This document shows positions 13,882 through 15,412 of a DNA stretch of 64,000 nt, in pieces; within the stretch, counting starts at the first letter, position 1, and each line of letters begins with the position of its first letter. The stretch is taken from positions 483,162 to 547,161 of the forward strand of contig OZ242179.1 of assembly GCA_965205735.1 (NCBI GenBank), given 5' to 3'. The stretch is from Candidatus Azotimanducaceae bacterium. GTDB taxonomy: Bacteria > Pseudomonadota > Gammaproteobacteria > Pseudomonadales > Azotimanducaceae. Under the pieces are notes generated by a model, which was not told the origin of the DNA, did not search any database, and saw only the letters and a list, made by a program, of their open reading frames with translations. The position numbers and the translations under genes are program-made.

Positions 13882-15412
13882 CTACATTCCCAGGAACGCG
13901 TCGATGGAGTGACGCCCCATCACGTCCCAGGCCGACCCCCGATAGCGGTGTCGGATGCGCGTCCCCGCGGCAGACGCGGGTCGAGATCCTGCGCTACGCT
14001 CAGCGGGTCGCCGACCATGTAATGCGCCCGTATGCCGCCATGCTCGCCCTTGCGGTAGCGGGAATGCAGGCCCGCCGCGTTGAATGTGACAGCCCGCGCC
14101 CCGGTGGCGTACGCCCCCGCCGACGCCAAGCCGCCCCCCAGCGAATGCCCGACCATGATCACGTTGCCGCCAGTGGCTTTGTATACGCGCTCGGCCAACT
14201 TGATGGCCTGCTCGTACTGCGAGGCCTTCAAGCCGACCGCCTGCCCGACATTGGCGGTAGTGTCCGCCAGTCCGTCAGTGCCCCGGAACGCCAGCATGTA
14301 GCGGTCGCCCACCTTGTACAACGCCGCCCCGAATCCATCCTCTGGATTATACTTGATCCCGAACTGCGACAGGAGCTCGCCGGAATCGTCGCCGTAGACC
14401 ATCGACGAAGCTTCAGCTGCGCCTCGATCGGTCCGTGTCCACTTGTCGTCTTCCGGCTCGTCGGCGGGCGAATGGTCCTCGAGCGTGATCGTGCGGGTGA
14501 CGTTGTAGCTGTACGAGTACGGCTGGTAGTCCACGCCCCAGAAGTAGTCGTAGGTCAGGTCGTAGACGTAGTCGTTGCCCCCGGGCCACGCCGACCCCCC
14601 GACCGTTGTCCAGACCGGCACCGCGTAGCGGTATGGGACCGCCATGACGCCGTCTCCGTCGTGGTCACGGTCACGGTCCGCGTGATCGAGCCGCCGCCCC
14701 CGCCGCCGCCAAAGTGCAGGCACCCCTTGAGCGGCCCGCACCTCGGCCCCCCAGCCCCGTCGGGTCGACGTACAGCGGGTTGTTGCCGACGTAGCTGTAG
14801 AGGTTCCACGACTGGCTGGAAGTGGGATCCCCGACAATGGGATCGGGGCTCAGGAACCGGCCCAGGCGCGGGTCGTACACGCGCCCGTTCATGTGGATCA
14901 CGGTCCAGGTGCTCGTGCCTGGTGAAACCCCGCGACACGCGCTCGCCGTGGGCGCCCAGCAGGGTCTCGATCTCCGCCCTGGTCAGCCGCGCCGTCCAGT
15001 CGTTCTTGCGCCGCTCCCCGTACGGGTCGTGGCCCAGCACCACCAGCTCCTCGCCGGCTTCGTTGGTGACCGACTCCACCGAGCCCAGGTGGTCCCGGTG
15101 CGCGTACTCGAACACCGACAACGGCGTCGGCATCAGGCCCGCGGGGGTCGTCCTCACGTGCACCACCGAGTCGCCGATGCGCGTGCGCTCCACCGCTCGC
15201 CGCCGACCGTCACCGTCATTCTCGTACGCGCCCGCGTAGTACTTTCGCGACGTCTTCATGGCCGTCGTGGCGCCGGACTCGACCGCCCACTCGGTCTTCT
15301 TAAAGTAGCGCGCCCCGTCCGGGCCGTAATGGAAGCTGTCGCGCGCAGTCGGCGTCGCGCGTCCGCGCTGTCGCCCACCGTCACCTTCTCCGCCAGCCCG
15401 CGCGCGTTCCAC
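13882..15412 (-). pseudogene. frame-disrupted 3' part of the main rhs gene (RHS core end plus class-3 lipase toxin domain)
   Basis: The conserved sequence is spread over frames: 14555..15412 (ARDSFHYGPDG...HEHLD), 14671..14901 ([20 protein letters not shown]...YVDPTGL), 13920..14837 (MAVPYRY...AFRGTDG...VGHSLGGGLA...VGDPLS), and a final frame ending AWDVMGRHSIDAFLGM-TAG at 13882. Confidence 0.75.

Follow-up and report, generated by a model that had tools for sequence, protein, structure and literature searches.

Clustered small indels in the toxin-encoding tail of an rhs gene that precedes an intact immunity gene

Organization of the rhs locus

The 64,000-nucleotide stretch analyzed here, referred to as the window, belongs to the genome of a Candidatus Azotimanducaceae bacterium (contig OZ242179.1, positions 483,162 to 547,161). 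It carries a long minus-strand gene of the Rhs/YD-repeat polymorphic toxin family which, as assembled, is a pseudogene. The intact part of this gene (15361..21837) encodes a signal or anchor segment, repeated Ig/PKD/cadherin-like domains, SpvB and TcdB-like domains, and an RHS/YD shell. The corresponding open reading frame (ORF; 21837..15256, 2193 aa) matches the Pfam families Big_9, Cadherin_5, PKD, SpvB, and RHS_repeat, and its core is 65–83% identical to relatives carrying PF05593/PF25023. After 15360 the reading frame is wrong, and it terminates at 15256.

The remaining parts of the gene lie further along the minus strand in other frames. These are the core tip up to the DPxGL motif (14755..15360), a pre-toxin linker with a Gly-rich stretch (14453..14754), and a Tle6-type alpha/beta-hydrolase lipase toxin domain (13882..14452), followed by an intact immunity gene (13096..13878, 260 aa). 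After the 2193-aa ORF come two ORFs, 15412..14555 and 14837..13920, that overlap and use other frames. Three-frame translation of 15700–13850 shows a recognizable protein that hops between frames in the order core end, core tip, HMNG and DPxGL motifs, Gly-rich linker, GHSLGG lipase, and a short C-terminal piece ending with the TAG at 13884–13882. The core-end motif (PxxxxDPxGL) is legible as YVDPTGL at about 14770–14755, in a shifted frame only; in relatives it is contiguous with the core. No single open frame leads from core to toxin; eight indels break it, and the stop at 15256 precedes the DPxGL motif. A promoter and terminator scan of 12800–15600 returned neither.

The N-terminal part of the protein contains four tandem 261-nt repeats (19997–20898) encoding repeated Ig/FN3-like modules. 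All four are in frame, and three of them are 95–97% identical.

Identity of the toxin and its immunity partner

The largest single-frame piece of the toxin matches the Pfam Mbeg1-like family (PF11187) with E = 2.3e-5, above the cut-off. Another match is the chain 7ubz_B in the PDB, described as a type VI secretion system (T6SS) lipase effector (E = 1.5e-13), with GHSLGGGLASA and TFNAAGLHS aligned. The domain is thus a GxSxG lipase, homologous to Tle of E. cloacae, in which the GHSLGG serine motif is preserved. A complete catalytic triad is not found in one frame, because a 7-nt deletion at 13969/8 separates the conserved C-terminal segment containing RHS from the Ser motif. The conserved His of that segment is predicted to belong to the triad.

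The toxin stop codon (TAG, 13884–13882) sits 3 nt before the GTG start of the immunity gene at 13878, in agreement with the initial annotation of the window. The immunity ORF (783 nt) has no indels and aligns end to end, with 59–63% identity, to the genes behind intact lipases in relatives. The same pairing of lipase and directly downstream immunity gene is found in six relatives. The encoded protein matches Pfam Ank, Ank_2, and Ank_5 and begins with a hydrophobic signal, and it is predicted to be a secreted ankyrin-repeat protein. The protein of PDB 7ubz defines the Tle6 group, whose members are always encoded together with ankyrin-repeat immunity proteins (PMC11470151). Taken together, the lipase match, the association of Tle6 with ankyrin-repeat proteins, and the ankyrin-repeat ORF downstream lead to the prediction that the payload is an antibacterial, periplasm-acting phospholipase with its immunity partner, carried as the tip of an SpvB/TcdB/RHS protein. 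The N-terminal signal or anchor and the Ig-like domains suggest an export route other than the T6SS.

Clustered indels in the rhs tail

The tail of the gene was compared with the window's own orphan rhs cassette (11980..12835, minus strand), with 9–16 homologous copies from six genomes of the same genus and, for the toxin domain, with six intact lipase cassettes. Indels were placed between window bases by gapped DNA alignment and three-frame translation. Between about 15367 and 13968 the gene has eight indels, each private to it among all aligned copies. Five lie in the core tip, where the multiple alignment comprises 17 copies: a 1-nt deletion at 15360/15359, a 1-nt insertion at 15218, a 1-nt deletion at 15197/15196, an 8-nt deletion at 14901/14900, and a 3-nt deletion at 14773/14772. 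Two 7-nt deletions follow in the linker (14753/14752 and 14654/14653), and a third 7-nt deletion lies in the lipase domain (13969/13968). The toxin is thereby broken into six frame pieces. The damage extends over the final ~140 codons of the core and on to the end of the lipase. Because of these eight indels, translation ends at 15256, ahead of the cleavage motif and the toxin.

The initial annotation had reported at least five frame-breaking indels in the last 1.5 kb, which slightly understated the damage. All six of its items recur here: a 1-nt deficit near 15357, an 8-nt deletion at 14900/14901 (seen against both the orphan and the relatives), an in-frame 3-nt loss near 14771, a net 7-nt loss at 14751–14753, a 7-nt deletion near 14651 with microhomology, and a further shift between 13925 and 13960, which proves to be the 7-nt deletion at 13969/13968. 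It had missed the insertion at 15218 and the deletion at 15197/6, which leave seven codons out of frame between them. Its remark that the last of its indels lies outside the multi-copy segment also stands, as 13969/8 falls in the lipase region, of which this assembly has a single copy.

The events share several properties. Their sizes range from 1 to 8 nt, all events above 1 nt are deletions, and the single-base indels lie outside homopolymer runs. Flanking microhomology is 0–4 nt, and the deletion at 14654/3 is flanked by 4-nt direct repeats. Two of four 7-nt deletions lie between 4-nt direct repeats, as compared with about 1.3% of sites for random 7-nt deletions in intact templates (P ~1e-3 for at least two of four), in a statistic that counts four 7-nt deletions where the positions above give three of 7 nt and one of 8 nt. 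The lesions begin within about 40 nt of the point at which the orphan of one relative starts.

The upstream 6.5 kb, by contrast with the tail, is free of indels, as had been proposed. In tblastn comparisons with intact relatives (1726–3567 aa), it aligns as single high-scoring segment pairs of 1382–2146 aa (for example, 1535 aa at 79%), which end at 15358–15373 and all of which change frame at 15358–15376. For eight uniformly placed indels, the probability that all fall within the last 1480 of 7956 nt is P = 1.4e-6, and this clustering rejects uniform in-situ neutral decay of the whole gene.

History of the toxin tip among relatives

Six relatives have the order core, DPxGL, linker, lipase, and ankyrin-repeat gene in one open frame, and in four of them (G008, G010, G019, and G020) the lipase cassette is on a long or full-length rhs frame. 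The comparison with orthologous loci that the initial annotation had called for yields intact lipase cassettes in six relatives, with the 7- and 8-nt deletions private to the copy in the window. The searches turned up no second assembly of this species, as the nearest full-length relative has only 82% identity across the stretch used for searching. The immunity protein, looked up exactly with either of two alternative starts, gave no match. Two metagenome scans, one for either allele at the 13969/8 site and one for the junction of the 8-nt deletion, were empty.

The tip is a mosaic. Its core portion is about 87–88% identical to the closest relatives, the linker (14653–14453) is 92–95% identical to linkers that precede other toxins in G019 and G020, and the lipase is only 70–74% identical to the lipases of relatives. 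In addition, 326 nt of the main copy (14949–14624) and the orphan segment 12392–12042 are sister copies with 96% identity, each nearer to the other than to a copy in any other genome. This sister segment is the footprint expected from C-terminal displacement. Since the duplication, the main copy has gained five derived substitutions and four indels, and the orphan seven substitutions and no indels.

The gene family has two interchangeable types of pre-toxin linker after DPxGL, one Gly-rich and the other Trp/Cys-rich (window 14453–14754 and loci L011–L016). Both finish in a conserved junction (SVADEP/QP) ahead of unrelated toxin domains, and recombination may thus have a second joint here, downstream of the DPxGL boundary that is classically recognized.

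Origin of the lesions

The initial annotation had offered two explanations, inactivation of the toxin with retention of its immunity gene or corruption of the consensus where paralogous copies collapse during assembly. The first is favored, and we consider it probable, though by no means certain, that the toxin tip is truly pseudogenized and that the immunity gene has been kept. It fits all testable points, namely a full-length immunity ORF, a toxin in six frame pieces, and degraded neighboring rhs copies. A dead toxin tip beside a kept immunity gene is an ordinary outcome in Rhs loci, and the gene would be a known kind of dead toxin gene. Pseudogenes are widespread among Rhs genes; in Ralstonia, for instance, they make up 132 of the 294 Rhs sequences (bioRxiv 10.1101/2025.05.08.652813).

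According to this explanation, the product of the intact gene would be a secreted or surface-anchored Rhs protein whose RHS shell would enclose a Tle6-type phospholipase at the C-terminus, to be released behind the DPxGL motif. The producer would be protected by the periplasmic ankyrin-repeat protein, whose gene lies 3 nt downstream and would presumably stay under selection because neighboring cells still make the lipase. Slippage or end-joining at very short repeats would have produced the lesions in vivo, once displacement had duplicated the 326-nt segment of the tip; the genome encodes Ku and LigD. The 4-nt direct repeats at the deletions are a mechanistic signature of slippage or microhomology joining.

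Alternatively, the true gene could be intact and the damage a local fault of assembly or consensus, produced when reads from paralogous cassettes or, if the record derives from a metagenome, from co-existing strains whose tips differ were piled up and polished. This is a serious possibility, albeit a clearly less probable one. Seven of the eight lesions are in sequence that has paralogues in the genome or the genus, the region is rich in repeats, and the genome and its relatives resemble metagenome-derived records. However, every copy compared retains the bases missing from the main one, among them the orphan, which is the only paralogue of that stretch within the genome. As all compared copies hold these bases, mixing of paralogue reads should not remove them. 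The deletion at 13969/8 lies in a lipase region that is single-copy in the assembly, no single-base indel is in a homopolymer run, and the private substitution load of the main copy is ordinary. Decay also extends across the locus, with neighboring rhs copies damaged in different ways, while the immunity ORF is free of indels beside eight indels in 1.4 kb. The three near-identical 261-nt repeats of the same gene and 141 kb of sampled genes are likewise clean or nearly so.

The background of such lesions was estimated by comparing the genome with 126 long ORFs from 400 kb of a syntenic relative (G007), of which 107 had orthologues (47,042 aa or 141 kb, median identity 87%). With only one rRNA operon in the assembly, a single contig of 4.29 Mb, rRNA copies offer no internal check of errors. 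The 141 kb of conserved coding sequence contained about five frameshifting indels (~0.035 per kb), in comparison with 5–6 per kb in the rhs tail, a density about 150 times the background. General sequence noise is therefore rejected. The initial annotation had dismissed such noise because the other long genes of the window are whole; those ORFs are indeed open, but the genome does have the five or so frameshifts just described. They comprise +2 and +1 indels in a pilC/gspF-like gene (genome positions 1467013 and 1467279), +2 and -1 indels in an arylsulfatase gene (180778 and 180256), and one +1 in a run of C. This low background of odd small indels, including two separate +2 insertions, is a point in favor of consensus errors. 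About 2–3% of the sampled conserved genes are frameshifted in this genome, and G007 appears to bear a similar load when the comparison is reversed. The broken genes elsewhere (pilC-like and arylsulfatase) are dispensable.

Several features of the indel pattern weigh against real decay. Over the 645-nt core tip, the main copy has five indels, four of them frame-breaking, whereas 14 of the 16 other copies have no frame-breaking indel and the worst of the remaining two has two. The main copy is thus an outlier of technical appearance among 17, as the others are almost lesion-free although many of them are presumably silent orphans. Its ten private substitutions are ordinary (0–27 in the other copies), so that the ratio of indels to private substitutions is 5:10, as opposed to 3:100 pooled over the other 16 (Fisher P = 8e-4). 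This ratio is far beyond that of usual neutral decay, and an abundance of indels, all those above 1 nt being deletions, without a matching excess of substitutions has the look of consensus errors. The sister orphan gives the same picture, with a similar number of derived substitutions and yet none of the four indels. Three-frame translation revealed no in-frame nonsense substitution in any of the frame pieces, and the upstream 6.5 kb carries no lesion even though it is useless without a tip. Deletions of 7–8 nt make up five of the eight events in the size statistic, as against four in the list of positions, and none of 33 gap events in eight other paralogue pairs of the genome (P = 7e-5).

A burst of error-prone repair would account for many indels with few substitutions and none upstream. 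Here, one or more double-strand breaks or failed exchanges in the 3' cassette, where rhs genes recombine with orphans, would be followed by Ku/LigD end-joining, low-fidelity synthesis, or template slippage, leaving scars of 1–8 nt within a short time. Adjacent, intact genes for Ku and for LigD with a Prim-Pol domain are present (genome 4097269–4100322; L047 and L048), so the organism encodes the two-component bacterial end-joining pathway. The sizes of the indels, their position outside homopolymer runs, and their 0–4 nt of flanking microhomology fit such repair; the lesions are limited to the cassette that is exchanged in the gene family, and the mosaic ancestry of the tip shows past exchange. 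On the other hand, the lesions are spread over 1.4 kb rather than placed at a single junction, 16 other copies that recombine equally have no such clusters, and the breaks themselves are without direct evidence. This mechanism, a sub-case of real pseudogenization and inseparable from slow decay on the present data, is improbable. Equally slim is the chance of a mutational shower of small deletions, tied to a rearrangement hot spot in rhs and occurring during a failed cassette exchange.

Other origins were considered and set aside. Recombination of a decayed silent orphan onto an intact core is less likely, because the cassette is already on the full-length gene in four relatives; it is further weakened by the near absence of indels in silent orphans and by the four indels that arose on the main copy after duplication of the 326 nt. 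Self-targeting by CRISPR was rejected, since the region has no match in the genome other than rhs. Programmed frameshifting or a split functional lipase was rejected as well, given that there are too many shifts and that the conserved C-terminal segment is cut off.

Neighboring rhs copies and other features of the genome

The orphan cassette, truncated at its 5' end, has lost about 470 nt internally and closes with a short stub of a toxin. Beyond it lies a second, decayed rhs copy (8830..11431, minus strand), whose SpvB/TcdB part has become fused with the final YD repeats; this copy also has -2 and +1 indels and a truncation. The orphan toxin stub and a ParE/RHH (ParD-like) pair at 11425–11986 fall within a segment that is 95.6% identical over 1152 nt to one relative (window 11241–12392; G008 L016 9100–10245), a value well above the 70–88% or so of other between-genome DNA identities at these loci. 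Upstream of rhs, window 21891–22195 is 94.5% identical to G008 L016 7887–8192, which in G008 abuts a 453-aa C-terminal rhs fragment; the whole rhs core appears to have been deleted at that locus.

Another rhs locus at 2.18 Mb (2188376–2182617 and 2181856–2179634) has an in-frame stop near 2186088. It is without the N-terminal Ig-like region and has an orphan of its own behind it. In several tandem paralogue families with 90–95% identity, a copy with a long open frame has a neighbor that lacks one (2105862–2107720, 1730438–1732577, and 3152967–3154166), which suggests that the genome contains many decayed duplicates. The frameshifted sites in conserved genes relative to G007 include genome position 1288847, and the two separate +2 insertions mentioned above are of the same dinucleotide in a GC-rich context.

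Comparison with known toxin systems

If the lesions are real, they add one more bacterium, in a little-known genus, that gives up a weapon and keeps the shield. The sole unusual point is the mutation pattern, which is dense, indel-only, and dominated by 7- and 8-nt deletions. Either it warns about the quality of the consensus where single-contig assemblies contain multi-copy toxin loci, or it hints at mutagenesis that accompanies repair at a recombination hot spot. Neither outcome alters the understanding of such loci.

Jackson and colleagues reportedly described, in 2009, Rhs loci with orphan C-terminal (CT)/immunity modules formed by C-terminal displacement. Like displacement loci, the locus has a full-length rhs gene with 5'-truncated cassettes behind it that have the core tip in common, a duplicated tip segment of 326 nt, an immunity gene directly behind the toxin, and decayed copies that retain immunity genes. 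In contrast to such loci, it is the full-length, presumably expressed gene that is broken here and not the displaced orphan, and the damage consists of many small indels instead of truncation. The formation of orphan CT/immunity modules by displacement in Rhs systems is treated by Koskiniemi et al. (2014, PLoS Genet), to the extent cited in PMC11470151, and by Zhang et al. (2012; PMC3482391).

The payload resembles the Tle/Tli pair of E. cloacae (PDB 7ubz) in that the lipase core matches and the immunity partner is a predicted secreted ankyrin-repeat protein. The alignment with the solved chain spans only about 80 residues, and the gene in the window is broken. Unlike E. cloacae Tle, the lipase forms the C-terminal tip of a signal-peptide-bearing, Ig-like SpvB/TcdB/RHS protein and is not stand-alone T6SS cargo. 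The interest of the locus lies in part in this alternative means of carrying a Tle6-type lipase.

The architecture of SpvB and TcdB-like domains followed by an RHS shell is that of the BC subunits of Tc toxins, in which TcB and TcC form a cocoon. The protein encoded here differs in being a single polypeptide with N-terminal Ig/PKD/cadherin repeats. Moreover, the pairing of its payload with a periplasmic immunity protein indicates bacterial targets.
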